A stretch of 64,000 bases of DNA from Planctomycetota bacterium (GCA_024279865.1 JAJRRC010000109.1:17513-81512); one strand, 5' to 3'. Counted from the first letter of the stretch, positions 29,114 through 61,006 are shown. Notes: a model not told the origin generated them from the letters alone. Made by a program: numbers and translations.

Positions 29114-29433
29114 GGATTCAAAAGCCCATTGTTCGCTAGCATTGCCACCATTTGCTGAACATGGTCCGAAGCAGTGGCCCGGTCAATTTCATACTCATTG
29201 CAAACATCATCGACAAGATCAGAATACGTTCGGGTGGGCTGACATCCTTCCCAAACAATCAAGGCAGTACGATTTAATCGAAATGTTCCGCCCGTGGCTG
29301 AATCAAAAAGCAACGCTTCGTCATCTAAAATTTGTAAACTCACATCACTACGCTGGGATGGACAAGGCAACAAAGCCTCCTCCAATACCCACGGCGAGGT
29401 CAACGGATAAGAATCGGTAGATAACTGAGGCAT
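29110..29433 (-). CDS. PqqD-family (RRE-type) peptide-binding protein
   Basis: LQILDDEALLFDSATGGTFRLNRTALIVWEGC...YSDLVDDVCNEYEID...VQQMVAMLANNGLL is a typical PqqD fold signature. The start is set at the internal ATG (MPQLSTDS) so that it does not overlap the peptide gene. Confidence 0.75.
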   Translation of the reverse strand: MPQLSTDSYPLTSPWVLEEALLPCPSQRSDVSLQILDDEALLFDSATGGTFRLNRTALIVWEGCQPTRTYSDLVDDVCNEYEIDRATASDHVQQMVAMLANNGLLNP

Positions 29434-29482
29434 GGGGGCTTCTCTGTAAACATCAATCAAACGAAGACAAGCGGCAAATAAT

Positions 29483-29740
29483 TTAGGACGGAGCCCCCGA
29501 CACACTGGCAAAAGCAGTCTTGTTGGCCGTTAATGCAATGACCACAGGAGCGACATAAGCAGCTTTCTTGGCCATGCTACGCACAAACTGTCGCCGCGTT
29601 GCCGCGTTGTCCACCGGAAATTTCTCCCCCGCAAGACCCCCCGGCTCCCCCGGTTCCCCCGGTTCCCCCGAATCATCGGTTGGCCGTGGCTTGTGTGGTT
29701 TACGTGAAGGCGTGTTGGATTGATTCATAGCATTTTCCAT
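29483..29740 (-). CDS. small peptide (85 aa) with a twin-arginine-like motif; candidate substrate of the cassette
   Basis: The peptide contains TRRQFVR, the hydrophobic stretch AAYVAPVVIALTA and an AFA site, and then only SVSGAPS before the stop. It sits between the nucleotidyltransferase and PqqD genes on the same strand. Confidence 0.45.
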   Translation of the reverse strand: MENAMNQSNTPSRKPHKPRPTDDSGEPGEPGEPGGLAGEKFPVDNAATRRQFVRSMAKKAAYVAPVVIALTANKTAFASVSGAPS

Positions 29741-29794
29741 CCCATTGGATCTATCGACATTTGGACCAAGGGTCCTCAGTAAAACTTATCGGTT

Positions 29795-31549: not shown

Positions 31550-31578
31550 TTGAAATCTGACCCTCTTCCGGGATAATT
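31550..31578 (+). promoter_or_regulatory. candidate sigma70-type promoter of the DegT operon
   Basis: TTGAAA-N17-ATAATT lies about 65 nt upstream of the ATG at 31642. An AGGAG RBS sits at 31629-31633. Confidence 0.3.
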
Positions 31579-31641
31579 CTTACAGTTGGCCTACCAGTGT
31601 GCAGGCCCTTAGTATAGAACCATCTCAAGGAGTCAATCAAT

Positions 31642-32940
31642 ATGTCTTTAACATCCACAGAATCAACTCTGGCAATTCTTGGCGGCTCACCAGCGGCCCC
31701 TCAGGATATCGTGAAACCCTGGCCTCCGATTGACGATACAGATCGCCAGATGGTGCTTGATTCACTCAACGGAACCAATCACGCCTTCGGCCCCAACTGC
31801 CAAGCCTTTTCAAAAGAAATGGCTGAGTGGAACGGTAACAAGCATGCCATCTTCACCAACAGTGGGACGGCAGCCTTGCACATGGGACTCGTCGGTTGTG
31901 GCGTGGGTGCGGGCGATCACGTGATCGTCACCGGCTACTCTTGGTCTTCAAGTGCAACCTGCATTATCCATCACAATGCCATCCCCATTTTTGTCGATAT
32001 TGACTTCGATACCATCAACATCGACGTAGACAAAATTGAAGCAGCCATCACCCCCAAAACCAAAGCCATCGTCGCGGTCCACTTGCATGGCCTGGCGATC
32101 AATATGGAAAAATTGATGGAAATAGCAAACAAACACAATCTCAAAGTGATTGAAGATGCTTGCCAAAGTCATGGTGCTGAATACAAAGGTAAAAAAGTTG
32201 GCACGATGGGTCACTGCGGTGCGTTGAGCTTTAACCAAAACAAAAGTCTTTGTGCGGGTGAAGGCGGGATGTTCCTGACCAATGATGAAGAAATTCTCGC
32301 AGGCGCTTCGAGCCTTTGGTCCTTCGGCGAAACTCGCACGCCTTCAGAAGACCGCGATTTCCATGCGTATGCATTGGGTTGGATGTACCGCGCGAACGAT
32401 CTGACGGCCGCCTTCGGCCGAGCACAGCTCAAAAAGCTCACTGGCTACATTGAAACCGAACGTTCAAATGCAGATGCGTTGCGTGCCGTACTTGAAGGTA
32501 CACATGGCCTGATCATGCCGACGGAGCCTGAAAACCATTTACATACTTATTACAACTTTAGTATTCGTATTGATATGGACGCGATTGGCTGGACGGGTGA
32601 GCCCACGCGTATGCGAGACGCATTGCTTAAAGCAATGGCCGCTGAAGGTGCTCACCCTGTTGTTTGGCAGCGATTTATTTTGCCTAGCATGACGGTGTTT
32701 CAAGCGAAGAACGCTTATGGCAAGGGCAGTCCTTGGGCTGAGCATGATGCGTTGGATGTGGATTATAACCCTGCGAATTTTCCTGTGTCCCAGCATCACT
32801 CTGATACGCACTTTGCGATCATTATGCCGTTGCGTGCCCCCAATGGTCCTGAAGTTGCTCAGGTGATGGGCCAAGGCATCCGCAAGGTTTTTGAGAATAT
32901 TGAGAAAATTGATCCCGACCAGATTCTCGACGAAAAATAA
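31642..32940 (+). CDS. DegT/DnrJ/EryC1/StrS-family PLP aminotransferase
   Basis: 432 aa with the typical family layout (FTNSGTAALHMGL ... SFNQNKSLCAGEGG containing the PLP Lys). Confidence 0.85.
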   Translation: MSLTSTESTLAILGGSPAAPQDIVKPWPPIDDTDRQMVLDSLNGTNHAFGPNCQAFSKEMAEWNGNKHAIFTNSGTAALHMGLVGCGVGAGDHVIVTGYSWSSSATCIIHHNAIPIFVDIDFDTINIDVDKIEAAITPKTKAIVAVHLHGLAINMEKLMEIANKHNLKVIEDACQSHGAEYKGKKVGTMGHCGALSFNQNKSLCAGEGGMFLTNDEEILAGASSLWSFGETRTPSEDRDFHAYALGWMYRANDLTAAFGRAQLKKLTGYIETERSNADALRAVLEGTHGLIMPTEPENHLHTYYNFSIRIDMDAIGWTGEPTRMRDALLKAMAAEGAHPVVWQRFILPSMTVFQAKNAYGKGSPWAEHDALDVDYNPANFPVSQHHSDTHFAIIMPLRAPNGPEVAQVMGQGIRKVFENIEKIDPDQILDEK

Positions 32941-32974
32941 GTTCCAACAGAAAAAAATAAAAGAAGGAAGTGCC

Positions 32975-34285
32975 ATGATTATTCACACGGGTGCGGCTTC
33001 GGTCGTCATTACCCCGCCTTTGGGAACTCAGATTCAAGGGGCGGGTGTTCCCGATCAGCCCGCCAAAGTCATTCGTGATGAGCTTGAAGCCAATGCGGTT
33101 TATTTTTGCAGCGACGATGAGGCTGTTCTGTTGGTCAGTTGTGATGTAGGGATGTTGCCGACGGATTTTGTGATTGCTACGCGAGCGGCGATAGGCGAGG
33201 CGATGGGGCTGGCTGAGTCGAACGTGATCATCAGTGCCACGCACACCCATTCGGCTCCTTCGGTATCAAGGACCAATTGGGTCAAGCCGGTGGCGGAGGA
33301 TTTCCTCAAAAATCTCCGCGATCAGTTGATGGCCGTCGCTTGTCAGGCAAAGCAGTCTGCGGTGGTGTCGAAAATCGGATGGGGGTTGGGGCACACTCAA
33401 CTTGGCTACAACCGAAGGTGCTGTTGGTCTGACGGCTCACATAGCATGTACAACCCCACGGGTCGGACTGATTTTACTGGATTTGAAGGGCCAGAAGACT
33501 CTGCTCATGTTGCGTTTTTTGCCTGTGATATGGAGGGAAAACTTCTGGCGGTGATTCATCAGAATACGGCTCATCCGACTTGTTTTTATGCAGGAGATTG
33601 CTTCTCCAGTGATTTTCCAGGCGCTGCGCGAAGCCACCTCAGAGACTCTTTTGGCGATATTCCCGTGTTGTTTTTTAATGGCGCTCTAGGCGACATTTGC
33701 AGGCAGGAAACCATGGGGATAGGTCAATCTGAAACCTCCGAACAGGTTCTCAAACGCAATGGGCATCTTCTCGCAGGTGAAACACTGCGGTTATTTCACC
33801 AGGCCCCATTGCACGATGATGTGGCCTTTGGTCATGTGTATGAAGACCTGACGGTGGACGTGCGATTGCCTGATCCCAAACGGCTCGCTTGGGCGAGAGA
33901 GGTGGTCGCTTTGGCTCAGTCGGGCAAAGCGAGCAAGCCTGAAAATTATATTGCAGCATGGGGCATCGCGTTACTGCAAGATGAGTTTGGCGAGAATCCG
34001 GTTGACACGCTGCGTTTGCATGTGGTTCGTCTCGGTGATGTGGCTTTGGTGACTCAGCCGTGCGAGCTTTATTGTCAGTTTGGCTTGGATATCAAGCGTC
34101 GCAGTCCCGCTCCGATTACCAGTGTTTCATCCCTGACCGATGGCTACGGAGGCTATTGCCCGACGATGTATGGCATTTTGGGCGGTGGGTATTCCGGTGA
34201 GTCTTACCAATGGTGTCGCCTCGCTCCCGAAGCGGGCTACCTGCTTGTGGATGTGGCTTCTCGTATGTTACGCCAACTTTGGTAA
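32975..34285 (+). CDS. short neutral/alkaline ceramidase-like amidohydrolase, paralogue 1
   Basis: ITPPLGTQIQGAG ... LLVSCDVGML ... ISATHTHSAPS matches the ceramidase N-terminal domain pattern. At about 437 aa it lacks the ceramidase C-terminal domain. Confidence 0.7.
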   Translation: MIIHTGAASVVITPPLGTQIQGAGVPDQPAKVIRDELEANAVYFCSDDEAVLLVSCDVGMLPTDFVIATRAAIGEAMGLAESNVIISATHTHSAPSVSRTNWVKPVAEDFLKNLRDQLMAVACQAKQSAVVSKIGWGLGHTQLGYNRRCCWSDGSHSMYNPTGRTDFTGFEGPEDSAHVAFFACDMEGKLLAVIHQNTAHPTCFYAGDCFSSDFPGAARSHLRDSFGDIPVLFFNGALGDICRQETMGIGQSETSEQVLKRNGHLLAGETLRLFHQAPLHDDVAFGHVYEDLTVDVRLPDPKRLAWAREVVALAQSGKASKPENYIAAWGIALLQDEFGENPVDTLRLHVVRLGDVALVTQPCELYCQFGLDIKRRSPAPITSVSSLTDGYGGYCPTMYGILGGGYSGESYQWCRLAPEAGYLLVDVASRMLRQLW

Positions 34286-34335
34286 AATCAGTCAACAAAG
34301 AAATAAAATAAACAACCCCGAAAGGTTTTTAACCC

Positions 34336-35163
34336 ATGAAACTATCCATGATGTCCTACACGATGAGCCGCCAGCCCAAGTTTTTTGATTTGGCCCAGAT
34401 GTTTGATCTGACCGCAGAGCTGAAACTTGATGGCATTGACATGGTGACCCTGCACGGCAGCACTGCCAAAGAATTGCGGAAAATGGCCGACGATCGCGCC
34501 ATTCCCGTGGTCTGTCACACTTTTATAGCGGACCTGAACTTTCCCACGACTGCCGAGCGAAGTAAAACTGTGGATGACGCTCGCCGTGGGATTGATGCGG
34601 CAGTGGAACTGGGCGCTCCGACGGTCATGATCCCCACCCCCGCCAAAGCAGGCGTGGACCGTGATGTCTCTCGCAAAAACTGGATCGCCGGTTTACAGGA
34701 GGTGATCCCTTACGCCAATGAGGCAGACATCATCTTAACGGTGGAAAATTTTCCCGGTGCGGGTAGCCCCTTCGTCATCGCCACCGATCTGCTCCAAGCG
34801 GTGCGAGAAGTGCCAGGCATGAAAATAACCTATGACAACGGCAACGCCTTCTCCGGCGAAGAACCAATCCAGTCCTTCAAGGATGTGGCGGAGCATACCG
34901 TGCATGTCCATTTCAAGGATTGGGATATCGTCGAAGAAGGCCAGGGCATGGCCATGCTTAACGGCACAACCATGGCCTCCGCCTTGATCGGCGAAGGCGA
35001 TATAGATACCAAAGGTTGTCTCAAAGCTCTGACTGATGCCAACTATGATTTCTGCATCAACCTTGAATACGAAGGCAACAAATACAATCCCACCGAAGGC
35101 GTTCGCAAAGCAACCGAATATCTTCGAAACGCCTATGCAGAATTAACCGCGACATCGGTCTGA
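34336..35163 (+). CDS. sugar phosphate isomerase/epimerase (xylose isomerase-like TIM barrel), copy 1
   Basis: 275 aa. It is a tandem paralogue of the next gene. Confidence 0.75.
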   Translation: MKLSMMSYTMSRQPKFFDLAQMFDLTAELKLDGIDMVTLHGSTAKELRKMADDRAIPVVCHTFIADLNFPTTAERSKTVDDARRGIDAAVELGAPTVMIPTPAKAGVDRDVSRKNWIAGLQEVIPYANEADIILTVENFPGAGSPFVIATDLLQAVREVPGMKITYDNGNAFSGEEPIQSFKDVAEHTVHVHFKDWDIVEEGQGMAMLNGTTMASALIGEGDIDTKGCLKALTDANYDFCINLEYEGNKYNPTEGVRKATEYLRNAYAELTATSV

Positions 35164-35193
35164 CTTTAAAGTCAAACAAGAAAGTTTTAGCTC

Positions 35194-36030
35194 ATGAAAT
35201 TGTCCATGATGTCGTTTACGATGAGTTTGCAGCCGGAGTTTTTTGATCTGACGCAGATGTTTGACCTAACGTCCGAACTGAAACTCGACGGCATTGATCT
35301 GGTCACGCTTCACGAAACCCCCGCAAGCGAATTGCGGAAAATGGCGGATGATCGTGGCATTCCCATTGTGTGCCACACTTTTCGGGCGGACTTAAATTTT
35401 CCCACTGCCGCGGAACGACAGCCCGCTGTGGACCTTGCTCGTAAAAGTCTTGACGCAGCCGTCACGCTGGGCGCTCCGACGGTGATGATTCCCACGCTTC
35501 CCAAAGCAGGTGTGGATCGTGATCTATCTCGCAGAAACTGGATTGCCGGTTTACAGGAACTGATTCCCTATGCCAATGACGTGGGAGTCGCTTTAACCGT
35601 GGAAAATTTCCCCGGCGAGGGGAGCCCCTTCGTCATCGCCACTGATTTGCTCCAAGCGGTACGAGAAGTGCCAAGCATGAAAATAACCTATGACAACGGC
35701 AACGCCTTCTCTGGCGAAGAGCCAGCCCAGTCATTTAAAGATGTCGCTGAGCATACGGTGCATGCCCATTTCAAAGATTGGGATATCGTCGAAGAAGGCC
35801 AAGGCACAAAAATGCTCGACGGTCGCACCATGGCCCCCGCTCTGATCGGTGAGGGAGCCATTGATACCAAAGCCTGTCTCAAGGCTCTGGCTGATGCGGG
35901 TTATGATCGCTATATCAACATTGAATACTGTGGCAGAAAATACAATCCCACCGAAGGCGTTCGCAAAGCAACCGAATATCTACGTCGGATAAATGAAGAA
36001 CTGACAACCGCGACGCCTGTGGTGAAATAA
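35194..36030 (+). CDS. sugar phosphate isomerase/epimerase (xylose isomerase-like TIM barrel), copy 2
   Basis: 278 aa and about 70% identical to copy 1. The two copies share exact nucleotide runs of 36 nt or more. Confidence 0.75.
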   Translation: MKLSMMSFTMSLQPEFFDLTQMFDLTSELKLDGIDLVTLHETPASELRKMADDRGIPIVCHTFRADLNFPTAAERQPAVDLARKSLDAAVTLGAPTVMIPTLPKAGVDRDLSRRNWIAGLQELIPYANDVGVALTVENFPGEGSPFVIATDLLQAVREVPSMKITYDNGNAFSGEEPAQSFKDVAEHTVHAHFKDWDIVEEGQGTKMLDGRTMAPALIGEGAIDTKACLKALADAGYDRYINIEYCGRKYNPTEGVRKATEYLRRINEELTTATPVVK

Positions 36031-36114
36031 AGATGGCGCTTGGGTTGAATTACAATAGACATGCCCATACTTATTGATGAAATAAGGGGCTCTTTTCAAA
36101 AGAGATAGATAAAG

Positions 36115-37437
36115 ATGATTACCGTAGGAAGCGCTTCTGGAATTATTACAAATGAATTAGGTACCGATATCCAGGGCGCAGGATGCGGCGGGAAAGCTGC
36201 CTACATTCGAGACGAATTAGAAGCTAGCGTGATGTATATCAAGCAGGGAGATACCGAAGTCATGTTCGTTAGTTGTGACTTGGGAGGATTGGAATCTGAC
36301 ATCACCGTTGCCACACGAAATGCCATGGCTGAAGCCTCTGGGATCAATCCACGGTCCATCATTATTGGTGGTACACACACAGGAGGCCCTTCGGTCCTTC
36401 CCTCTAACCGTCAAAAACCGGTCGATCTAATATACCTTGAAAAACTAAAAAACATACTCACGGACTTGGCGAAAAAAAGTGTGCAATCCATGGTCCCCGC
36501 CACGTTAAGTGTGTCTCAAGGTCATGCGAAAATTGGTTACAACCGAAGGACCTGCTGGAGTAATACAAGCCATCAAATGTACGGCAAGGCACAGGGAAAA
36601 ATAACGTTCACCGGCAACGAAGGGCCCGAAGACCCCCAGCAATTTGTCTTGTATGCGGTGGATGAAAACAATCAGATTTTAGCAGTGTTGCATCAAAATA
36701 CATCCCACCCATGTACTTTTTTTGGTGCTGATTTTTACTCAGCAGACTATCCCGGACTCGCACGAACTTACCTTCGGGAAGCACTGGGCGATATCCCCGT
36801 TCTCTTCTTTAACGGTGCTCTTGGCGATATCGGGCAAAGTCTAACAAATGAAAACTCATTTGGGGGAACTGACAAAGAAATGATGATCAGGCGATGCGCA
36901 CTGTCGTTGGCGGGAGAAACACTGCGTTTGATTCATGAAAATCCACCCACAGCAAACAATCGCCTTCAACACATCTGTCAGGATTTAGAGGTGGCTGTCC
37001 GATTGCCAACACCACAAAAACTGGCATGGGCAGAAGAAACCATCGCCAAAATAGATGCGGGAGAATCGCTTCCTCCTTTTGATCAAATTTTTTCCCATGG
37101 TGCCAGCTTACTTCAAAAGCGTTTTGGTGATCACCCAATGGACTCTCTTCCAATTCATGCGATTCAAATTGGACCTGCAGCAATCATTACTCAACCCACA
37201 GAACTTTTTTGTTATTTCGGCCTTGAAATAAAACGTCGTAGTCCATTTGCCATTACCAGTGTCTTCAGTCTCTGTGATGGGTATGCGGGATATTGTCCCA
37301 CCTACGATGCAATTGTTGGAGGGGGCTATTCTGGAGAGCCGATCTATTGGACTCGTTTTACGCCTGAAACAGGCTATCAAATGGTTGATGAATCATCTCG
37401 CTTGTTGTTCCAGATGCAACAAGAAAACGAGGGATGA
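36115..37437 (+). CDS. short ceramidase-like amidohydrolase, paralogue 2
   Basis: Colinear with paralogue 1 (IGGTHTGGPS, VLFFNGALGDIG, GYAGYCPTYDAIVGGGYSGE). Confidence 0.7.
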   Translation: MITVGSASGIITNELGTDIQGAGCGGKAAYIRDELEASVMYIKQGDTEVMFVSCDLGGLESDITVATRNAMAEASGINPRSIIIGGTHTGGPSVLPSNRQKPVDLIYLEKLKNILTDLAKKSVQSMVPATLSVSQGHAKIGYNRRTCWSNTSHQMYGKAQGKITFTGNEGPEDPQQFVLYAVDENNQILAVLHQNTSHPCTFFGADFYSADYPGLARTYLREALGDIPVLFFNGALGDIGQSLTNENSFGGTDKEMMIRRCALSLAGETLRLIHENPPTANNRLQHICQDLEVAVRLPTPQKLAWAEETIAKIDAGESLPPFDQIFSHGASLLQKRFGDHPMDSLPIHAIQIGPAAIITQPTELFCYFGLEIKRRSPFAITSVFSLCDGYAGYCPTYDAIVGGGYSGEPIYWTRFTPETGYQMVDESSRLLFQMQQENEG

Positions 37438-37490
37438 AAACGTAGAGCCTGCTGGTTATTTTTTAATGAACAAAGGATCAAAAATAAACC

Positions 37491-38900
37491 ATGAAGCAAC
37501 CTAATATTTTATTTGTGATGACCGACCAACAACGAGGTGACTGTCTCGGCGTGGAAAACCACCCAGTTCTGATGACGCCTGTGATGGATGATATGGCTGC
37601 TCGTGGCGTGCGGTTTACCAAGTTTTATTCTGCTTGTCCTAGCTGTATTGCCACCCGACGCGCGATCCTCTCAGGCATGTCACCTCAACGCAACGGCATG
37701 GTTGGGTACAACGGCAACGTTGAATGGCATCCGCCTACCACCCTGCCTGGCATCCTTGCTGATCACGGCTATCAGACCGGCCTTGTGGGGCGTTCGATGC
37801 ACCAATATCCGCCTGAAAAACATTTTGGCTTTGGAGACATGACCAGTAATCAATACGCGACCATCCCAGGAGATGACTACAACAGTTGGCTCGAAAAAAC
37901 AGGTCCCCAAGGCAATGGTGGTTGGTTCGGCGGCGGGGTGATGCACAATGACCACACCGCCCGGCCATGGCCTCTAGAAGAACACCTGCACATGACCAAT
38001 TGGACCATGACGCGATCCCTGCAATGGCTCCAAGAACGAGATCGAAGCAAGCCGTTCTTTCTCAACGTTAGTTTTATTGCACCCCATCCGCCACTTCAGC
38101 CACCGGAATTTTATTTTGAACGTTATATCCGCACCGGTGTACCTGAGCGGTTTCTTGGTGATTGGGCTTCTCCGCCGGAGTTTGGCAGTGCGATAGACGT
38201 TGTGTCGGCAAGCTGTATGGATCTCAAAGGTGAAGCCTTGCTCAGCGCTCGGGCAGCTTACTATGGGTTGATCAATCATGTGGACAATCAGTTGCGACGA
38301 TTGTTTAACCCTGTTTTGGGCATGGATCAAGAGACACGTAAAAATACCATTGTGATCTTCACCAGTGATCATGGCGAAATGCTTGGCGATCATTATCGCT
38401 GGCGTAAAAGTTTAGCCTATGAAGCCTCTGCGCGTGTGCCGTTTATCATGTATGCTCCTGAGCGGTTCGGCATTAAGCGGACGTCCACCATTGATGCGGT
38501 GGCGACCCATGCGGACATTATGCCGACGTTGTTGGATATGGTGGGCATTGATATTCCGGATCATTTGGATGGCCAAAGTTTGATGCCGTTGATTCATGGC
38601 GAACAAACGCAATGTCGGGAGTATTTACATATTGAACACTCACCAGAGCAACAGGCGTTGACTGATGGTCGTGAAAAATTCATTTGGATGCCTGCCGACG
38701 GCCGTGAGCAATTTTTTGATTTAACCATCGACCCCAATGAATGCAAGAATTTGGTGGCTGATTCAAATTATGCCGATCGCGTGACGTTGTGGCGTGAACG
38801 AATGATCAATGCATTAGCAGATCGACCAGAAGGTTTTACCGATGGAAAGTCTTTGATTGCCGGGCGGCCGTATGGTTCAATGATCCCGGGGCGTTCTTAA
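37491..38900 (+). CDS. sulfatase (C-x-A-x-R variant)
   Basis: ILFVMTDQQRGD, CIATRRAILSG and SDHGEMLGDH. Confidence 0.85.
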   Translation: MKQPNILFVMTDQQRGDCLGVENHPVLMTPVMDDMAARGVRFTKFYSACPSCIATRRAILSGMSPQRNGMVGYNGNVEWHPPTTLPGILADHGYQTGLVGRSMHQYPPEKHFGFGDMTSNQYATIPGDDYNSWLEKTGPQGNGGWFGGGVMHNDHTARPWPLEEHLHMTNWTMTRSLQWLQERDRSKPFFLNVSFIAPHPPLQPPEFYFERYIRTGVPERFLGDWASPPEFGSAIDVVSASCMDLKGEALLSARAAYYGLINHVDNQLRRLFNPVLGMDQETRKNTIVIFTSDHGEMLGDHYRWRKSLAYEASARVPFIMYAPERFGIKRTSTIDAVATHADIMPTLLDMVGIDIPDHLDGQSLMPLIHGEQTQCREYLHIEHSPEQQALTDGREKFIWMPADGREQFFDLTIDPNECKNLVADSNYADRVTLWRERMINALADRPEGFTDGKSLIAGRPYGSMIPGRS

Positions 38901-38940
38901 TTTTTTCACCATCATCTTTTTACAAAGAAAGTTTTTTCAA

Positions 38941-40392: not shown

Positions 40393-40509
40393 TCTGATGC
40401 GTGGCCCGCGTATGTTAAAGTCATGATGCGGTATTAAAAACAATCGAACCGCAAGCCGCTTTAAGACGATTTGTTTCTCAAACTTTTCCCCCTTAGAAAG
40501 AATTAGACC

Positions 40510-41952
40510 ATGGATAAGAAACGCCTGAAAATTGGTTGGAACACGCAAGATATCACACCTCAAGGGAAGGTCTCTTTGCGGGGGCAATTTTATATCAGGA
40601 TCACCGATGAAATTAATGATCCGTTGACGACCACCGCCATGGCGATGGAATCTGAAGATGCCAGCGAGCAGGCCATTGTTGTTTCACTCGCAGCGATTGC
40701 GGTGAGCGATTACATCTTGGCTGGCTGTCGAGAAATTCTAGCTGAAAAACTCGAGGGTTTTAACCCTGAAAAATTGTTGATCAGCACGACACATCCACAC
40801 ACCGCACCGGAATATGCCGTTCCTGAAATGCTAGGGAAAGGCCTTCCCCTAGACGATGATGTAATGACGGATCAAGCGTATGGCAAATTGCTGATTGAGA
40901 AGATCAGTCTCGCAGCAATCAATGCTTGGAATAGCCGTCAGTTGGGTGCTTTGAGCTGGGGGTGTGGTCATGCGGTGGTTGGGTTCAACCGGCGAATTAC
41001 CTATTTTGACGGCACATCGAAGATGTATGGCCAAACTGACACGCCTGATTTTTCTCATATTGAAGGCCACGAAAACCACGGCCTCGACATGCTTTTTACC
41101 TATGACACCGAACATCGTCTGACGGGAATTTTGATCAATGTGCCCTGTACCGCTCAGTGTTCTGAGGGACGAAACTTCATCTCTTCAGACTATTGGCATG
41201 AAACCTGCCAATTGATTCGCCAACGTCATGGTGAACATATCCACATCTTGCCCCAATGCGCTGCGGCTGGTGACCTTGTGCCTCGGCCTATGATTGGCTC
41301 CCGCGCGGCTCGCCGTATGTTGGACTTAAAAGGCTATAGCGAAAAAAATGACATGGCATACCGCCAACATATTGCAGATAAACTTGCTGGAGCGGTGGAT
41401 GAAATTCTGCCACTGGCGTCCAAGGAAATTCACGATGAGGTGGCTTTTGGTCATGAAGTCATCCAAATCAGCGTGCCGCGTCGCCTTGTCAGTGAAGAAG
41501 AACTCCTCGCGGCTCAAGCTGAAATTGCTTCGGTGAATCAGAAGCTAGAAGAAATAAAGGACATGGACCCTTACTCCGTTGAATATTCGGGAACCTTCCG
41601 CCGTGGTAATTTTAACCAACTGACGGTCGATTGGTATCAGGATCAACAGCAAGGCAAGCAACTTTCCAGACCTGTTGAACTGCATTGTTTGCGGATTGGG
41701 GACATTGCGATGTGTACCAATCCATTTGAGTTTTATATCGACTTTGCGGCACGCATCATGGCTCGCAGCAAAGCGTTGCAAACTTTCGTCGTCGAACTCG
41801 CTGGCAGTGGAACCTATTTACCAACCGAGCGAGCCAAACAAGGCGGTGATTATAGCGCTTTTGTCGCGAGTTGCCCGGTTGGGCCTGAAGGTGGTCAAAT
41901 AATCGTTGAAGAAGAAATCAAAGCGATTAACCAGATGTTTTCAGAGAATTAA
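40510..41952 (+). CDS. ceramidase-like amidohydrolase, divergent paralogue 3
   Basis: The same N-terminal layout is present (ITPQGKVSLRGQF ... LISTTHPHTAPE), and the C-terminus AGSGTYLPTERAKQGGDYSA parallels the other paralogues. Confidence 0.55.
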   Translation: MDKKRLKIGWNTQDITPQGKVSLRGQFYIRITDEINDPLTTTAMAMESEDASEQAIVVSLAAIAVSDYILAGCREILAEKLEGFNPEKLLISTTHPHTAPEYAVPEMLGKGLPLDDDVMTDQAYGKLLIEKISLAAINAWNSRQLGALSWGCGHAVVGFNRRITYFDGTSKMYGQTDTPDFSHIEGHENHGLDMLFTYDTEHRLTGILINVPCTAQCSEGRNFISSDYWHETCQLIRQRHGEHIHILPQCAAAGDLVPRPMIGSRAARRMLDLKGYSEKNDMAYRQHIADKLAGAVDEILPLASKEIHDEVAFGHEVIQISVPRRLVSEEELLAAQAEIASVNQKLEEIKDMDPYSVEYSGTFRRGNFNQLTVDWYQDQQQGKQLSRPVELHCLRIGDIAMCTNPFEFYIDFAARIMARSKALQTFVVELAGSGTYLPTERAKQGGDYSAFVASCPVGPEGGQIIVEEEIKAINQMFSEN

Positions 41953-42065
41953 TTTTTTTTGTTTGCTGCGATCACAACGCAGAAATCGGAGATTTACCGA
42001 AGAGTCTGTTTTTTTTCAGACGCTACGCTTGGATTAAAAATGCTCTAAATGCACGAGCCTTGAAA

Positions 42066-43208
42066 TTAAACCGTAACGGTTGATTGCTGTGCTTGGGATT
42101 CCAATGCTGCGGTAAACAGGCGATGGCTTAAAGCCACTTCATCAAGGGTCACACAACCGCCGAATTTGGTGATGGGTTTGCCATGTTCGAGTTCGTATAA
42201 AAAGGCAGCCCACATTTGCTGGATGGCATCTGAGAATCCAAATTCAAAGATGCCGCCGGTGATACTGGGGTAAGCAGTGTCGATTCCCATGTCGATTTGG
42301 CCCCAGGTTTGTTCGCTGCCGTCGTATTTCATGACTTCGAGCAATTTGGGGTTTTTGGTGGAGAATCGCACGGAAGTTTTCGTTCCCAGAATTCTGACGT
42401 ACCAGGTATTTTTTTCTCCGGGGGCGATGCGGAAGCTCTTAAACGTCCAAGGGAACGTGGCATCGGTCGCGGGGTCGTGCATATCACACAAGAGGGTTCC
42501 GTTGTCCCATGTTTCACAAGGGACGGTGTTGCCTTGGCCATCAGGTCTTGTTGGCACGAGGTTACTTAAAATCGCGCGAACGTTTTTAGGCTTCCATCCT
42601 GCACGGAACGGCACATGACATGCGTGCATGCCCAGATCGCCCAGCACACCATATTCACCATTAAATTCAATCATCCGTTTCCAGTTGATCGCTTTGTCGG
42701 TGTTCATGTCACTTGAATGCAGGAAGCCGGTTTCGACTTCAATGATCTGTCCCAGTTCGCCGGACTCAATGATCTGGCCGATCTTCTGAACGCCTGGGAA
42801 AAACGGCATCTGTGAACAACAACGCACAAACACGTCAGGGTGTTCTGCGGCACAAGCGGTGATTGCTTCGTTGGCAGCCTTGTCGATGCCAAAAGGCTTT
42901 TCACCCATCAGATGCTTGCCCGCTTTGATGGCATCGGTGTAGATCGCTTCATGCTGATCGTGAGGCACAGCAATGTAAACCGCATCCACTTCTTCATTGG
43001 CGAGCAATTCACGGTAATCGTTGGTGGTCTGCTTGATTGAAGGAAAGTTGGACGTGAACCACGCAAAGGGTTTGTCCGAACGATTGCAGATCGCGACGAT
43101 TTCAGGTCGTGCAGGCATGTCATTGAGATGACACCAGCGTGCTGCTGACGAGGCAAATTCGCGACCCATCAGGCCGCAACCAATAATTCCAAAGCGAATG
43201 GTTTTCAT
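42066..43208 (-). CDS. Gfo/Idh/MocA-family NAD(P)-dependent oxidoreductase
   Basis: MKTIRFGIIGCGLMG Rossmann N-terminus and EKPF motif (LMGEKPFG). Confidence 0.85.
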   Translation of the reverse strand: MKTIRFGIIGCGLMGREFASSAARWCHLNDMPARPEIVAICNRSDKPFAWFTSNFPSIKQTTNDYRELLANEEVDAVYIAVPHDQHEAIYTDAIKAGKHLMGEKPFGIDKAANEAITACAAEHPDVFVRCCSQMPFFPGVQKIGQIIESGELGQIIEVETGFLHSSDMNTDKAINWKRMIEFNGEYGVLGDLGMHACHVPFRAGWKPKNVRAILSNLVPTRPDGQGNTVPCETWDNGTLLCDMHDPATDATFPWTFKSFRIAPGEKNTWYVRILGTKTSVRFSTKNPKLLEVMKYDGSEQTWGQIDMGIDTAYPSITGGIFEFGFSDAIQQMWAAFLYELEHGKPITKFGGCVTLDEVALSHRLFTAALESQAQQSTVTV

Positions 43209-43339
43209 AGTGATATTCACATCAATTCAAGTACAAAATTCAAATAAACTCAAAGCAAAAAAAGAAAAAGTGCAGAAGAAAAGAGTGTCCACCCCCCATA
43301 TCCTCCAAAGGCCCTGGGGGGATGCTCCACTTCCGGGGG

Positions 43340-44719
43340 TTATGCCATTCCCAATTCACGGGCAGTTTCACCGATGGCTTCATCGATCATATCTAGGCCC
43401 TTGAGAAGTGTTTTTTCATCCATCACAATTGGAGGACTCATACGCAAAATATGGCCCGCAGGAATCCAGGCCAAGCCCTTGGCGAAAGCTTTCTGATAGA
43501 TCAAAGTGCCAGCTTTGTCGAACGGCTCTTTGGTGATGCGATCCTTGACCAATTCGATGCCCATGAGGCAACCCTTGGCACGAACGTCGCCGATGATCTT
43601 GTGTTCAGCTTTCATCTGTTCCATACGCTTAAGTGCGACTTCACCGAGATGAACAGCATGATCCAAGAGGTTTTCTTCTTCGATGACTTCGGTGGATGCC
43701 AGTGCTGCTGCACAAGCCATGGGATTACCGCCATAGCTGCTTGAAGCGCTGATGGATTCAAAGCTTTCTTTGTATTGGTCACGCACTGCCACACAGGTCA
43801 CAGGGAAACCGTTACCAAAACCTTTACCCAAAGTCACGATGTCCGGAACCACATCCCAGTGTTCCATGCAGAGCCATTTGCCAGTACGACCCCAACTGCA
43901 AAGCACTTCGTCGATCATCATCAGAAGACCTTTGTCGTCGCAATACTGACGCAGCTTGGGGAAGAAGTCATCGGGAGGCATGACCGAACCGCCCCAGCCC
44001 TGAATGGGTTCAAGGACAAAACCAGCGACGTTTCCGACGGTTCCCTTGTTGATGTATTCATCGTAAAAAGTAATGTATTTGTCGGTATCAATGGTGCCAT
44101 CTTCTTTGGACCAGACTGGACGATAGGTGTCTGGACGTGGGACCATGTGTGCGCCGGGGGCGCGAACTGCACCGTAGACAGGAGAGCGAATGTGTCCCAG
44201 TGACACGCCGCCATAGGTTTTGCCATGATAGTCGTAGAAACAACTGATCATTTCGTTTTTACCCGTGGCAGCCCGCAAAACGCGGAGTCCAGCTTCGACG
44301 GCCGTGGTGCCTGAATCATAGAACTGAAAGCCGTTGAGGTCGCCTGGCAAAACTTCAGCGAGTTTTTCGACCAGGGCAGTCTTGATCGGGGTGGTGAAGT
44401 CATGAGCGTTCATCAGTTGGCTGGCATGCTTGGCGATTGCTTCACTGATCTTTGGATGGCAATGGCCCAGGGTGGTAACGTAGATCCCTGAGCTGAAGTC
44501 GATATAGCGATTGCCATCGACATCGGTCAAGACGCAGCCTTCGCCACTTTCAAAGGCCACGGGGAACAGTTTGACCTGGCCGGAGAGACCTTTGAAGTAT
44601 TTAGTGCAACGTTTGTGATAACTACGAGATTTCTCGCCTGGCACAGAGGTCATCATGTTTGGAACTTGGTCGAGGTCCACAGAGCCCCAGTCAAGTGTGG
44701 AAAAAGTAGCAGTGCTCAT
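43340..44719 (-). CDS. class III (omega-type) PLP aminotransferase
   Basis: 459 aa with FDSGTTAVEAGLR, MIDEVLCSWGRTGKW and TLGKGFGNG (PLP Lys). Confidence 0.85.
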   Translation of the reverse strand: MSTATFSTLDWGSVDLDQVPNMMTSVPGEKSRSYHKRCTKYFKGLSGQVKLFPVAFESGEGCVLTDVDGNRYIDFSSGIYVTTLGHCHPKISEAIAKHASQLMNAHDFTTPIKTALVEKLAEVLPGDLNGFQFYDSGTTAVEAGLRVLRAATGKNEMISCFYDYHGKTYGGVSLGHIRSPVYGAVRAPGAHMVPRPDTYRPVWSKEDGTIDTDKYITFYDEYINKGTVGNVAGFVLEPIQGWGGSVMPPDDFFPKLRQYCDDKGLLMMIDEVLCSWGRTGKWLCMEHWDVVPDIVTLGKGFGNGFPVTCVAVRDQYKESFESISASSSYGGNPMACAAALASTEVIEEENLLDHAVHLGEVALKRMEQMKAEHKIIGDVRAKGCLMGIELVKDRITKEPFDKAGTLIYQKAFAKGLAWIPAGHILRMSPPIVMDEKTLLKGLDMIDEAIGETARELGMA

Positions 44720-44722
44720 GGT

Positions 44723-45655
44723 TTAATATCCTTTATCCCATGTGTCTTGAATATCAGCAGCGATATTCTCGGTAATATAACAGTCTGTACGAAGTATTTG
44801 GTGAATGCTAGAGGGGAGTTTGGGGGTGACTGGGCCGTGGTAGCAGAGTCGTGCGATCATGCGTTCCCAACTGACGTCGGTTCCAGCGACCCCAATAGGG
44901 GCGACTTCAATTCGGTGTCTGGCCGCGATGACTTCTTTGGGTCCGATGGTGGCCGCCTTGGGCGGGACCGCAGCAAGGTCACCGCTGAATCCCATGCTGC
45001 CATGGAGTGAATTTTGTGCAATGGTAAAAGGGCTGAGCGTGGAAATCCGAGCGCCCATGGTTTTCCACTCTTCGAGCGGTGCGTCAAATTCAGGCGCGTC
45101 AGGATCGACAAAGGCCAAATGTCCCGTCCAACCCGGCCCGGTGTAGCTGATGTCCAGTCCGCCAGCCTCTTGCATGAGGTCGTAATAATGATCGAGGTTG
45201 TCATTGTTAAGGCCGAAAACCTGGCTTCGTGGCGGGCGCAGTTCTTCGTCCACTTCACTCCACAAAAACCGAAGCATGGCATAGGTAAACCCGCGAGGCC
45301 AATCTTCTGGCGCCACGCGGCCGTCTTGGTCGGCATACTCGTCCATGGCAAACCACCACACATGCTTACATGACAGTTTGGCTCGATTAATCATGCGTGC
45401 CAAATTGCAATAGCCAGGCCAAGGGTTTGGCATCAGCATCACGCAAGGCTTACCCGCATCGCGTGCTTCTTTCATGCGCCAGAACATATCGCCGAGCCAG
45501 ATATGCACAAAGTCTTCATCTGGGACCACGCGGATTTGAAAATCGGGGTTGGGATGATTCTCTATTTCAGAGCGTTTGATTGCTCGGCAACGCGCAATTT
45601 CCGCTTTGTCACGAAAAGGAACGCAAGGGGATGGATCATAATCAAAGTGACTCAT
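44723..45655 (-). CDS. NagB/6-phosphogluconolactonase-superfamily protein (glucosamine-6-phosphate deaminase-like)
   Basis: WWFAMDEY and GPGWTGHLAFVDP resemble the NagB motifs. Confidence 0.6.
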   Translation of the reverse strand: MSHFDYDPSPCVPFRDKAEIARCRAIKRSEIENHPNPDFQIRVVPDEDFVHIWLGDMFWRMKEARDAGKPCVMLMPNPWPGYCNLARMINRAKLSCKHVWWFAMDEYADQDGRVAPEDWPRGFTYAMLRFLWSEVDEELRPPRSQVFGLNNDNLDHYYDLMQEAGGLDISYTGPGWTGHLAFVDPDAPEFDAPLEEWKTMGARISTLSPFTIAQNSLHGSMGFSGDLAAVPPKAATIGPKEVIAARHRIEVAPIGVAGTDVSWERMIARLCYHGPVTPKLPSSIHQILRTDCYITENIAADIQDTWDKGY

Positions 45656-46476
45656 GAACAGCGACCTCCAGCATGCTGTGCCTTTTTGGTAGACGAAAGC
45701 ATGATTGGGATTTTGTGGGTTTCTAATTTTTGTTTGAATAGCGAGCTGATTTTTTCATCACAAATCAGGCCGTCCCAATCCTTGAGATTGGCGTATCGGT
45801 AAAGCTCATGGCGATCGAGCTTGGTATGGTCTGCGGTGGCGTAAACGCGGGTGGCGGCATTGGCCATGCGTGCGAGCATACACCCGATTTCGGCACTGAC
45901 ATTGTAAAGATTGCCCTGGGCATCAATGGCATCCGCCCCGATGAAGGCCACGTCTGCTCGCAAGTTTTCAAGGTTGCTATCGGTAATTGCGCCCATGAGG
46001 TCGGGGGTGTTTTGTCGCAGTACCCCGCCGAGTAGTAGGACGGTGACATTTTCCTGGCCAAACAGTTCTGATGCAATGGGGAGTGAGCCGGTAATAACGG
46101 TGATATTGTTTAGAGTTTTGAGTTGGCGGGCAATGGCCAGAGTCGTCGTACTTGAATCAAGCATGACGGTATTGCCATGGGAGATTAGGCTTAGGGCGGT
46201 CTTGGCGATTTGTTTTTTTTCTTCAGCTTGCTGTCGAGCTCGTTCAAGGAATCGAAATTCAAAGCTGACACGGGTGGCGGCGGTTGCGCCGCCGTGGGTG
46301 CGAATCACTTGGCCGTCATCGGTGAGGTCTTGGAGGTCTCGGCGAATGGTCATCCCGCTGACCCCGAAGTGGTCTGCAAGCAGATCGACGGAACATTCGC
46401 CATTGGCATCGAGCCATTGGACCATTTTCGCTCGACGCGAGGCAGGACTGAGGGTTGCAAGAGGCTGTTCATTCAT
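45652..46476 (-). CDS. DeoR/GlpR-family transcriptional regulator
   Basis: N-terminal HTH (VDLLADHFGVSGMTIRRDLQDL) plus a DeoR C-terminal sensor domain. It overlaps the downstream gene by 4 nt. Confidence 0.85.
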   Translation of the reverse strand: MNEQPLATLSPASRRAKMVQWLDANGECSVDLLADHFGVSGMTIRRDLQDLTDDGQVIRTHGGATAATRVSFEFRFLERARQQAEEKKQIAKTALSLISHGNTVMLDSSTTTLAIARQLKTLNNITVITGSLPIASELFGQENVTVLLLGGVLRQNTPDLMGAITDSNLENLRADVAFIGADAIDAQGNLYNVSAEIGCMLARMANAATRVYATADHTKLDRHELYRYANLKDWDGLICDEKISSLFKQKLETHKIPIMLSSTKKAQHAGGRCS

Positions 46477-46534
46477 GTTAATATATGTTTATATTGAACA
46501 CGCAGGCTTTTGTCAACTCTTTTGAGAAGGAATC

Positions 46535-47872
46535 GTGAAAATGGCTGATTCTGTGAAACAAACCTTGATTGCGGGGGCATCAGAGGTTGATATTACGCCT
46601 GACAAATCCATGTTTCTGTTTGGCTATCCCCATGTGCAGCGGATGAGTACGGGGGTTCACGATCCACTTTTAAGCTCAGCGTTGTATTTGCACAACGGTT
46701 CGTCAGGCATTTTGTTCATCGCCCATGATTTAATTTGGGTTCCACGAGATGTTTCTGAGCGGGCACGTCAAAGGATTGTGCAAGAAGTCCCGGTCACGGC
46801 CACAGAGATCATGATTACCGCGTCTCACACCCATTCGGGACCGATTACCGTTTCGGTGCTCAGCAATGAGGCAGACCCGGTTGTTCCCAAGCCAGACCTT
46901 TCATACCTACAGATGCTCGAAGACAAGATTGTCGAAGCTGCGGTGCTGGCGTACCGCAATGCCAAGCCCGCAGAAGTGGGGCTCGCTTGCGTGGATGGCT
47001 CGATGGTGGGAACCAACCGTCGTTCGCCCGAGGATATGAGTATTCCGCAAACACCTGTCATGGCGGTGCGGGACGTGGAATCGGGATCATTGGTTAGCCT
47101 GATGGTGATTGCGAGTATGCACCCGACGGTGCTGCACGAAGACTCGACATTGATCAGTGGCGATTGGCCGGGCTTGATGCGAAGGTATTTACAGGAAGAA
47201 GTCGTTGGCGCGTCTTGCCCGATTGTTTATCACATGGGAGCTTCAGGCAACCAAAGCCCCCGACATGTGACCCAGTCCAATACCTTTGCTGAGGCAGAAC
47301 GGCTTGGCATTGCTTTGGGCAAAGCAGTGGAAGAGGCGTTGCCTGGGATGAATTATCTCAATGAGGTTGATCTAAAAAGTAAGTCCACCGCCATTGAGAT
47401 ACCTCTGCGTCGTTTCCCCAGTATTGAAGATGCCAAGAGAGCGTTCGATGCTGCACAAGCAAAATTTACAAATCTCCAAGCCTCAAATGCTCCGGCAACG
47501 GAAGTCCGAACTGCCGAGTGCGATGTTTTTGGAGCTGAAGAAACATGGACGCTCGCCAAAGCAGCCCAAGCGGGGCGATTGCAGGAGGTCGCTCAGTCCT
47601 ATTTGCCGATGGAAGTTCAGGTTGTGCAAGTTAGCGATTGGCGATTCCTTGGCTGGTCTGGTGAAGTGTTTGTTGAATTTGCTCTCCAAATCATGGCCAA
47701 CCACCCTGATACCTTTATCATCACGCTCGTCAATGGCGACATGCAAGGCTATATCGTCACCGAACAAGCGGTAGCAGAAGGGGGCTATGAAGCTTCTAAC
47801 GCGCTGTTTGAAAGCCCCGCCAGTGGTAATCTTCTGGTAAAAGCTTCTGAGCAGCTCTTGACAAATCTATAA
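46535..47872 (+). CDS. ceramidase-like amidohydrolase, paralogue 4
   Basis: ITPDKSMFLFGYP ... ITASHTHSGP. It is divergent from deoR. The start is GTG 46535 or ATG 46541. Confidence 0.65.
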   Translation: MKMADSVKQTLIAGASEVDITPDKSMFLFGYPHVQRMSTGVHDPLLSSALYLHNGSSGILFIAHDLIWVPRDVSERARQRIVQEVPVTATEIMITASHTHSGPITVSVLSNEADPVVPKPDLSYLQMLEDKIVEAAVLAYRNAKPAEVGLACVDGSMVGTNRRSPEDMSIPQTPVMAVRDVESGSLVSLMVIASMHPTVLHEDSTLISGDWPGLMRRYLQEEVVGASCPIVYHMGASGNQSPRHVTQSNTFAEAERLGIALGKAVEEALPGMNYLNEVDLKSKSTAIEIPLRRFPSIEDAKRAFDAAQAKFTNLQASNAPATEVRTAECDVFGAEETWTLAKAAQAGRLQEVAQSYLPMEVQVVQVSDWRFLGWSGEVFVEFALQIMANHPDTFIITLVNGDMQGYIVTEQAVAEGGYEASNALFESPASGNLLVKASEQLLTNL

Positions 47873-61003: not shown

Positions 61004-61006
61004 CTT

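Follow-up and report, generated by a model that had tools for sequence, protein, structure and literature searches.

Gene Content of the Locus

A stretch of 64,000 nt from a Planctomycetota bacterium (GCA_024279865.1 JAJRRC010000109.1:17513-81512), here called the window, contains at positions 31642-47872 a locus that encodes four short ceramidase-like proteins (Cer1 to Cer4), two sulfatases (Sulf1 and Sulf2), two pyridoxal phosphate (PLP) enzymes of aminotransferase type (DegT and AT3), two TIM-barrel proteins (TIM1 and TIM2), a NagB-like protein, a Gfo/Idh/MocA-family enzyme (Gfo) and a DeoR-family regulator (Table 1). Judged by gene order in relatives, these 16 kb are two separately conserved modules, A (31642-41952) and B (42066-47872), and not one DeoR operon. 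The two adjacent modules are proposed, with a confidence that we put at even, to serve as a wholly intracellular system for the catabolism of imported sulfated N-acylated amino sugars, and the substrates are proposed to be monosaccharides or very small oligosaccharides taken up from outside.

The locus proteins were analyzed by open reading frame (ORF) listing and by profile searches with Pfam and the NCBIfam equivalog models, and the order, strands and families of the genes came out exactly as laid down in the original prediction, which had been made from the sequence of the window. On the plus strand the intergenic gaps measure 30-117 nt, and Cer4 and deoR diverge from a region of 58 nt. The ORF of Cer1 was listed from 32891, and alignment with homologues places the likely start at the ATG given in Table 1. 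None of the 13 locus proteins carries a signal peptide, and no transporter or glycoside hydrolase lies inside the locus, again as predicted; SusC/D and glycoside hydrolase genes are also absent from the window, so that the locus does not qualify as a polysaccharide utilization locus (PUL) of the Bacteroidota type. Its closest relatives are Phycisphaeraceae metagenome-assembled genomes, and a protein identical to Cer2 is found on NCBI contig JAJRZF010000205 of assembly GCA_024275395.1. No Rfam family reached threshold across the window, including the 477-nt leader of DegT, which was checked for riboswitches and other RNAs, and no tRNAs were found. Terminator and promoter scans inside the locus returned fewer sites than shuffled controls, and only the DegT promoter was used.

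Table 1. Genes and regulatory features of the 16-kb locus (positions in the window)
Feature	Position	Strand	Module	Profile match or remark
Promoter-like site TTGAAA-16-GATAAT	31550-31577	+	A	10/12 consensus matches
DegT/DnrJ/EryC1-family PLP sugar aminotransferase (DegT)	31642-32940	+	A	PF01041, 291 bits
Cer1, predicted ceramidase-fold Zn amidohydrolase, full catalytic set	32975-34285	+	A	
TIM1, xylose-isomerase-like TIM barrel (AP_endonuc_2)	34336-35163	+	A	PF01261, 115 bits
TIM2, xylose-isomerase-like TIM barrel (AP_endonuc_2)	35194-36030	+	A	PF01261, 122 bits
Cer2, ceramidase-fold paralogue without second His of HxH	36115-37437	+	A	
Sulf1, Cys-type S1 sulfatase, S1_46-like, without signal peptide	37491-38900	+	A	PF00884
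Sulf2, Cys-type S1 sulfatase without signal peptide	38941-40392	+	A	PF00884 + SGSH_C
Cer3, ceramidase-fold paralogue without third Zn-ligand His	40510-41952	+	A	
Gfo, Gfo/Idh/MocA sugar dehydrogenase or reductase	42066-43220	-	B	PF01408 + PF22725
AT3, class-III PLP aminotransferase-family enzyme	43340-44719	-	B	PF00202, 307 bits
NagB-fold putative amino-sugar-phosphate deaminase/isomerase, 310 aa	44723-45655	-	B	
DeoR-family regulator	45652-46476	-	B	HTH_DeoR + DeoRC
Conserved motif TGTTCAATATAAACA	46486-46500	-		just upstream of deoR
Cer4, predicted ceramidase-fold Zn amidohydrolase, full catalytic set, module-B type	46535-47872	+	B	

Fold and Active Site of the Ceramidase-Like Proteins

Cer1 to Cer4 are true homologues that have the catalytic fold of the neutral ceramidases. 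The four proteins align end to end, with identities to Cer1 of 50% for Cer2, 29% for Cer3 and 24% for Cer4, and their joint profile matches the neutral ceramidases 2ZWS (PaCD of Pseudomonas aeruginosa) and 4WGK (human ASAH2) with an E value of 1e-16 over the catalytic domain only. For the AlphaFold model of Cer1, with a mean predicted local distance difference test score (pLDDT) of 93.6, the Foldseek matches in the PDB are neutral ceramidases only, and the model aligns to 4WGK and 2ZWS with template modeling (TM) scores of 0.71-0.75 (query-normalized) at 16% identity. Against Pfam PF04734 (gathering score 32.1), Cer4 scores above the threshold with 36.0 bits, Cer1 below it with 24.2 bits, and Cer2 and Cer3 give no match; the NCBIfam model ceramidase_neut (NF041649) yields 25 bits against a cut-off of 1200. 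The original prediction that these forms share the ceramidase fold and lack its C-terminal domain holds: the proteins are 436-480 aa long and do not reach the ~650-700 aa of ceramidases, their matches span residues 5-490 of 2ZWS (chain length ~646 aa), and Pfam identifies no C-terminal domain in Cer1-4, where true ceramidases have an immunoglobulin-like (Ig-like) one (PF17048).

The Zn and catalytic residues were placed by mapping the HMMER alignment onto PaCD numbering. Cer1 and Cer4 carry equivalents of PaCD H97, H99, R160, H204, E411, Y448 and Y460, with H97/H99 corresponding to THTH and R160 to NRR in the Cer alignment. Cer2 is without the H99 equivalent ('THT-GGPS'), and the same variant is seen in all five homologues of its type that were sampled (P0002, P0010, P0015, P0017 and P0026; 52-71% identical). 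Cer3 has no His at the position of H204 and carries a conserved Cys one residue earlier, which is common to its orthologues from Victivallales and Prolixibacteraceae (L058:4285, L073:4806 and L060:15059).

On these sequence relationships, Cer1-4 fall into four old subfamilies that all have orthologues in other genomes, and are not the product of a recent expansion, so that the earlier description of the locus as a four-fold expansion is misleading. The Cer1 type is common across many phyla, and the Cer4 type is that of module B. Chance does not account for four family members in 16 kb. At least two copies are also present in 15 of 80 loci from relatives (see below). A profile search of 1.84 billion representatives, with clusters at 50% identity, gave 6,625 Cer-family clusters at E <= 1e-30; with the threshold relaxed to E <= 1e-10 there are 19,684, among which true ceramidases will be included. 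The matches include leaderless forms, forms with ~30-45 residues ahead of the matching part and numerous giant multidomain proteins, and the only source names in the match lists are 'hypothetical protein', 'neutral ceramidase' and 'neutral/alkaline non-lysosomal ceramidase N-terminal domain-containing protein'. No relevant paper turned up in a literature search that paired the short ceramidases with sulfatases, PULs or Planctomycetes, which is weak evidence, as most subscription journals lay outside its coverage.

Association of the Cer Family with Sulfatases and DegT

The association of the Cer family with sulfatases and DegT, which the original prediction had proposed to look for, is real and is borne out by neighbor enrichment as well as by fusion proteins. 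A set of 80 loci around Cer1/2-type genes was drawn from species-representative genomes and the ORFs were scored with the window proteins; the set is biased to the Cer1/2 subfamily, because the scan used homologues of this type. A sulfatase lies within 10 kb of the Cer gene in 38 of the 80 loci. Sulfatases occupy 20 of 165 adjacent gene positions, as compared to 24 of 473 positions at least three genes away (odds ratio 2.6, p 0.003), and for DegT the corresponding counts are 7/165 and 3/473 (odds ratio 6.9, p 0.004), p-values that are only indicative because shared ancestry is ignored and genomes of the Planctomycetes-Verrucomicrobia-Chlamydiae (PVC) group are rich in sulfatases. The fusions are stronger evidence for the Cer-sulfatase link than these statistics. 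Single Cer-sulfatase ORFs occur in two Verrucomicrobiota loci, and the protein database contains Cer-sulfatase architectures of ~955 aa and 843 aa, a sulfatase-Cer protein of 971 aa, and Cer-LamG-sulfatase fusions of ~1,200 aa in at least eight clusters. That the domains are found in both orders implies independent fusion events. All sampled Cer-sulfatase fusions have a signal peptide and the Cer HxH motif, and all but P0121 match the strict formylglycine pattern. In a reciprocal scan of 67 loci in metagenomes that started from Sulf1-type sulfatases, Cer and a Gfo family were the two commonest neighbor families.

The link to DegT is independent of sulfatases, as seen from pairs in Omnitrophota that have no sulfatase nearby. 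In five loci of this phylum (L072, L074, L077, L078 and L080) a Cer1-type gene is conserved together with a DegT orthologue (~610 bits), and the pair is located amid housekeeping genes such as those for a sigma-70 factor, a metallo-β-lactamase (MBL)-fold protein and glyQ. In Bacteroidota, Cer genes with signal peptides are found in SusC/SusD loci (L037, L045, L048, L051, L053 and L060), where their neighbors include sulfatases, glycoside hydrolase family 3 (GH3), an esterase, a PIG-L deacetylase and a NagB-like homologue, and where a DhnA-type aldolase comes after an AT3 orthologue.

Further fusion partners of Cer domains are DUF7133-HEAT-cytochrome c dehydrogenase-like proteins, ThuA, GNAT and DLH esterase; the fusions of the DUF7133/ThuA kind comprise P0135, P0241, P0270, P0315 and P0264, the last being a ThuA-Cer protein. 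P0135 has two HxH motifs (residues 118 and 596), which suggests tandem Cer domains. DUF7133 proteins furthermore neighbor Cer genes in six loci (L007, L023, L026, L027, L034 and L051), and fusions and neighbors together suggest that the Cer family is linked to periplasmic sugar oxidation. These partners, and a Gfo family that is as frequent near Sulf1-type sulfatases as Cer itself, are what would be seen if the Cer-like proteins were hydrolases of sugar lactones or O-acyl esters in oxidative glycan breakdown, or of sulfated N-acyl lipids, with the amine-removing enzymes on an unrelated branch. The parent family, moreover, acts on a lipid amide. Against this reading, the Zn/His/Glu/Tyr amidase site is conserved, the window proteins are soluble and without signal peptides, lipid-metabolism genes are not seen nearby, and the SusC/D glycan loci and the NagA-like, NagB-like, carbohydrate esterase family 4 (CE4) and PIG-L neighbors point to N-acetylated sugars. 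We therefore consider substrates other than sugar N-acyl amides unlikely.

The Sulfatases and Hints to the Substrate

Both locus sulfatases are of the Cys type, with formylglycine motifs C-I-A-T-R in Sulf1 and C-S-P-S-R in Sulf2 that conform to the C/S-x-P/A-x-R pattern, and they score 173 and 165 bits with PF00884. Sulf1 also exceeds the cut-off of the arylsulfatase model NF010322 (498 against 481). Its best solved relatives are nearly equal in score, namely 7OZ8 (283 bits), which we infer from the residue numbering to be BT1918, and the Mn arylsulfatase of E. faecium 9KOQ (274 bits), and Sulf1 aligns with both over its full length. [quoted passage not shown] Sulf1 retains the equivalents of Y94, N174 and R327, but differs from BT1918 in that it lacks an equivalent of Y408 and a signal peptide. 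Marine members of S1_46 vary in the residues that bind the N-acetyl group and may have other substrates (bioRxiv 10.1101/2021.07.23.453482), and the E. faecium enzyme is promiscuous (PMC12421950). For Sulf2, the best solved relatives are 7OZ8 (171 bits), the sulfatase-family protein 4UPI (157 bits) and the GlcNAc-6-sulfatase 5G2V (156 bits).

A further Cys-type (CSPAR) S1 sulfatase without signal peptide is encoded at 21474-22907 (+), ~9 kb upstream of the locus. Carbohydrate sulfatases of Bacteroides are generally exported. All four sulfatases of the window seem to be located inside the cell, an uncommon trait among carbohydrate sulfatases.

Two Separately Conserved Modules

For the DegT protein of module A, the best solved relatives are 8GYH, an unnamed DegT whose function was not traced in the literature, followed by scyllo-inositol and perosamine aminotransferases, with the kanosamine enzyme NtdA among the matches. 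Orthologues of DegT with 587-846 bits adjoin Cer genes or lie near them in L013, L058, L073 and the five Omnitrophota loci. TIM1 and TIM2 are a tandem duplicate (79% identical) with weak matches only to sugar epimerases or IolE, far under the cut-offs; the only good solved relative for the pair is that of TIM2, 'Art22' (8Z1I/9KOJ, 123 bits), the function of which was likewise not traced in the literature. The Phycisphaeraceae relative NORP295 (L013) has the order DegT-Cer1-TIM-TIM-Sulf1-Sulf2-CE4 deacetylase, with Cer2 and Cer3 missing, and in the Victivallales L058 and L073 the order is DegT-[CE4-like]-Cer3 type-another Cer-[TIM]-Sulf1-TIM-Cer1 type; CE4-like deacetylase genes are located inside the module A operon of L013 and L058. 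The gene directly upstream of DegT in Victivallales encodes an AraC regulator, which is divergent from DegT in L073 and has the same direction in L058. The promoter-like site of DegT in the window is conserved in L013 together with its flanks, including a block TTATTCCTCTTGAAATC and a box GGGATAAT 9 nt downstream of it. Between the DegT promoter and the start codon lies an inverted repeat GGCCT...AGGCC (31586-31620, +), which reads GGCTT...AGGCC in L013 and could be a hairpin of the 5'-untranslated region or a binding site.

The DeoR protein of module B has the N-terminal HTH_DeoR domain (PF08220, 67 bits) and the C-terminal DeoRC domain (PF00455, 152 bits) of its family; GlpR and AgaR are the nearest named models, both under cut-off. 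The NagB-like protein has no Pfam match and reaches 45 bits with TIGR00502 (cut-off 237) and 33 bits against the PDB. In Foldseek, however, the top 26 matches of its AlphaFold model (pLDDT 86) are all NagB-family chains, 20 of them named glucosamine-6-phosphate (GlcN-6-P) deaminase and six being chains of 6NBG, which is termed GlcN-6-P deaminase in its sequence record, with query-normalized TM scores of 0.55-0.66; the best matches are GlcN-6-P deaminases at 0.62-0.66. The protein is 60-89% identical across Planctomycetota lineages, with the invariant stretches F-x-x-DEY and G-H-L-A-F-V-E-P, which we take to correspond to the catalytic motifs of E. coli NagB with D72, H143 and E148. Gfo has distant matches only, to scyllo-inositol, levoglucosan and glucuronide-3 dehydrogenases. 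Overall, the solved relatives of DegT, AT3, Gfo and the TIM barrels act on keto and amino groups of sugars or cyclitols, or on generic amines.

Cer4 orthologues (296-507 bits with Cer4, at most 83 with Cer1-3) are found in L082, L083 and L085-L087, beside DeoR or GntR, NagB-like, AT3 and Gfo genes. DeoR orthologues head the module in L083 and L085-L087; AT3 orthologues score 884-992 bits in the Planctomycetota module-B loci and 630-640 bits in the SusC/D loci of Bacteroidota, where they adjoin a sulfatase and a Cer gene, and Gfo orthologues score 592-622 bits in L083, L086 and L087. The order is FGGY-DeoR-NagB-like-AT3-Gfo-Cer4 type in L083, which belongs to NORP295 and is a contig other than L013, and FGGY-DeoR-NagA-like-NagB-like-AT3-glutamate dehydrogenase-Gfo-Cer4 type in L086. 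The Cer4 type and FGGY are divergent from DeoR-NagA-like-... in L085 and L087, and in L082 (Adhaeretor mobilis) the Cer4 type is divergent from GntR-NagA-like-NagB-like-AT3-aldolase-symporter; L084 is an exception with a weak Gfo neighbor only. Among the five loci with a Cer4 orthologue, a NagA-like gene and an FGGY kinase gene are each present in four, and glutamate dehydrogenase in L086.

The motif TGTTCAATATAAACA has near-identical counterparts before deoR in L083, L085 and L086 and a partial counterpart in L087, and a TTGAC box lies farther upstream in the window, L083, L085 and L086. The motif is a candidate for a promoter -10 region and/or a DeoR operator common with the divergent Cer4. 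Its end is ~9 nt upstream of the deoR start codon (46474-46500), which leaves little room for a ribosome-binding site, so that the deoR mRNA may be leaderless or nearly so. No credible second copy of the exact motif exists in the window, and none upstream of DegT; moreover, the deoR/Cer4 region and the region upstream of DegT share no words beyond 8-mers that could form a common DeoR operator. Co-regulation of module A by DeoR was dropped as an assumption for these reasons, and DeoR is assigned to module B, given that the motif is conserved at deoR and absent upstream of DegT.

The original prediction had treated the 16 kb as one DeoR-associated unit, and in its full form this would mean a single DeoR-regulated regulon with one linear pathway for one substrate, possibly an amino-cyclitol, and enzymes of inositol-pathway type. 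The two blocks are indeed physically adjacent and both contain Cer paralogues, and some loci of Bacteroidota combine orthologues of AT3 and the NagB-like protein with Cer and sulfatase genes. However, synteny in relatives holds for each module on its own and not for the locus as a whole: the modules are on different contigs in the closest relative (L013 and L083), module B occurs without module A in Pirellulales, module A goes with AraC in Victivallales, and DegT has a conserved promoter of its own and no deoR motif. As to the inositol pathway, scyllo-inosose aminotransferases are among the relatives of DegT, but the equivalog cut-offs are missed widely, with 58 bits against 355 for IolG and 22-28 against 290 for IolE; the likeness is therefore at the level of the fold only, and the inositol/amino-cyclitol reading was rejected as unsupported. 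The single regulon is thus decidedly doubtful.

Proposed Pathway

The catabolism of sulfated N-acylated amino sugars, which was already favored in the original prediction together with an amino-cyclitol variant that now lacks support, is the best reading from context, because of the Cer-sulfatase-DegT link, the CE4 and PIG-L as well as NagA- and NagB-like neighbors, and the likeness of Sulf1 to BT1918. What is observed is gene content, folds, catalytic motifs, the lack of signal peptides, the synteny of each module, fusions and neighbor enrichment, whereas each catalytic step, the order of the steps, the identity of the substrate and the confluence of both modules in one pathway are inferred. 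Module A would be transcribed from its own promoter. Sulf1 and Sulf2 would remove the O-sulfate from an imported sulfated N-acyl amino sugar, Cer1, Cer2 and Cer3 would hydrolyze N-acyl (probably N-acetyl) amide bonds, DegT would transaminate the freed amine to give a keto sugar, and the twin TIM barrels would isomerize or epimerize the latter. Module B would be controlled by DeoR via the conserved motif in the 58-nt divergent region. Here, Cer4 would take off an N-acyl group, AT3 would remove amino groups by transamination with 2-oxoglutarate/glutamate and the NagB-fold enzyme by deaminating isomerization, and Gfo would oxidize or reduce the sugar. The Opp-type ATP-binding cassette (ABC) system described below is a speculative candidate for the importer. 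The co-occurrence of Cer and NagA-like deacylases, and of NagB-like and AT3 enzymes for amine removal, suggests either that the substrate has multiple N-acyl amines or that the pathway is entered by two branches.

Several observations weigh against this pathway. Cer2 and Cer3, which lack a catalytic or Zn-ligand His, may not be hydrolases. DegT, the TIM barrels and Gfo stay below every curated equivalog cut-off and AT3 reaches none. Kinase and transporter genes are absent from the locus, and module B of the window is without the NagA-like and FGGY genes found in most relatives. The adjacency of A and B is met only in this genome. The Cer loci are phylogenetically non-independent, many of their contigs are short, and PVC genomes are rich in sulfatases. 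In the reciprocal scan a Cer gene was found in only nine of the 67 Sulf1-type loci, so that an obligate Sulf1-Cer pairing was rejected and the link is frequent and statistical, not obligate. Finally, the links of Cer to sugar dehydrogenases (DUF7133-cytochrome c, ThuA and Gfo) mean that the substrate could be an oxidized sugar, for example an N-acyl aminoaldonate or lactone.

A biosynthetic or remodeling role for an amino-sugar/aminocyclitol metabolite is very improbable, for although DegT enzymes and Gfo-DegT pairs are classic in amino-sugar biosynthesis (with NtdA among the DegT matches), the name of Art22 is in natural-product style and the Omnitrophota pairs sit amid housekeeping genes, the locus contains two sulfatases, four hydrolases and a DeoR-type regulator, its 13 scanned genes include no glycosyltransferase, nucleotidyl-transferase, NDP-sugar dehydratase or exporter, and its relatives are found in SusC/D uptake loci or have NagA-like genes, kinases, an aldolase and symporters as neighbors.

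Within the catabolic reading, a more specific and more tentative picture, to which as a whole we give somewhat less than an even chance, is that the short ceramidase-fold proteins are a new and large family of carbohydrate de-N-acylases of the carbohydrate-esterase type. They would act jointly with sulfatases, in some cases within one secreted protein that has both functions; in Planctomycetota and Lentisphaerota they would open an intracellular amino-sugar route of a non-canonical type, with removal of the freed amines by transaminases and not by NagB alone; and Cer1-4 would represent four specificities, or catalytic and non-catalytic partners, for a multiply N-acylated sulfated sugar.

Surroundings of the Locus

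About 9 kb downstream of the locus, at 57196-63960 (-), an Opp/Dpp-type ABC importer, consisting of a binding protein of the SBP_bac_5 family, a pair of permeases and an ATPase that contains an oligo_HPY domain, is followed by a co-directional Cys-type sulfatase that probably starts at MKNSSS... and would then be without signal peptide; this segment could serve to take up a small molecule that carries sulfate. The segment next to the locus on the upstream side, 28199-31165 (-), encodes a P-loop protein that resembles HPr kinase, a member of the PqqD family and a nucleotidyltransferase (NTP_transf_5), a trio reminiscent of accessory genes for the maturation of ribosomally synthesized and post-translationally modified peptides (RiPPs). 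Farther upstream, 4342-16895 (+) encodes a protein of 1,750 aa that combines several cytochrome c domains with CarboxypepD_reg, and then a cytochrome oxidase cluster with COX2, a 968-aa COX1-containing protein, CtaA and a UbiA/CtaB-like gene, and 19330-21375 (+) encodes a 681-aa SecA-like protein with DEAD, preprotein-binding and P-loop domains, which is shorter than canonical SecA.

Implications

In overall kind, an amino-sugar and sulfated-glycan catabolic locus is not categorically new; the context points to novelty in the large, apparently uncharacterized branch of the ceramidase superfamily on which the locus is built, and in the non-canonical amino-sugar route. Sulfated glycans are a major marine carbon pool, for which PVC bacteria and Bacteroidota are specialist degraders, and much of the sulfatase-rich gene content of these organisms lacks an assigned function. 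With thousands of clusters that are repeatedly located beside sulfatases or fused to them, the Cer family is a concrete candidate for a missing de-N-acylation step. Should this role be true, it would provide a new enzyme family for the annotation of glycan degradation and reagents for the editing of sulfated amino sugars, and would help to explain a conserved planctomycete operon. N-acetylglucosamine has been used to isolate planctomycetes, a trait on which the operon may bear. Experiments on the question are within reach, given the conserved deoR motif and the availability in culture of Adhaeretor mobilis, which carries module B (CP036263).

Comparison with Known Systems

The neutral/alkaline ceramidases (PaCD, 2ZWS/2ZXC; human ASAH2, 4WGK; PF04734) share with Cer1 the fold of the catalytic domain and the aligned Zn and catalytic residues, and presumably the Zn-dependent chemistry of amide hydrolysis is common to the Cer-like proteins. 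By contrast, the latter are only ~440 aa long, ~16% identical and without the Ig-like C-terminal domain, the H99 and H204 equivalents are missing from the Cer2 and Cer3 types, respectively, the neighbors are sulfatases and amino-sugar enzymes and not genes of lipid metabolism, and the copies in the window are intracellular.

Pairs of Gfo/Idh/MocA and DegT enzymes, such as NtdC/NtdA for kanosamine and GnnA/GnnB, could, if read in reverse, convert a sugar carbon between the hydroxyl, keto and amino forms. However, these pairs serve biosynthesis and have sugar phosphates or UDP-sugars as substrates, whereas Gfo and DegT of the locus are in different modules on opposite strands and meet no equivalog cut-off.

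With the canonical amino-sugar pathways, NagA/NagB for GlcNAc-6-P and Aga with the DeoR-type repressor AgaR, the locus shares a DeoR-family regulator and a protein of the NagB fold, and most relatives of module B have a NagA-like protein; the proposed logic, deacetylation and then deamination, is also the same. The NagB-like protein is, however, only ~20% identical to NagB and under the model cut-off, and the locus adds the class-III PLP, Gfo and ceramidase-fold enzymes. In the relatives of module B an FGGY (ketose-type) kinase takes the place of ROK or the phosphotransferase system (PTS), whereas module B of the window has neither a kinase nor a NagA-like gene.

The Ong pathway of Pseudoalteromonas degrades the oxidized chitin product GlcNAc1A by means of a de-N-acetylase (OngB, of the D-aminoacylase family), a PLP enzyme that removes the amine (OngC, of the D-amino-acid-deaminase type) and a kinase, under the control of a repressor and with a sodium:solute symporter (PMC9537276). 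OngB and OngC are not homologous to Cer and AT3, and sulfatases are not part of the pathway, so that the analogy is one of logic only; a possible N-acyl aminoaldonate intermediate would parallel the GlcNAc1A route. In its intracellular, non-canonical logic the Ong pathway resembles what is proposed here, and the relatives of module B likewise contain a symporter and an aldolase.

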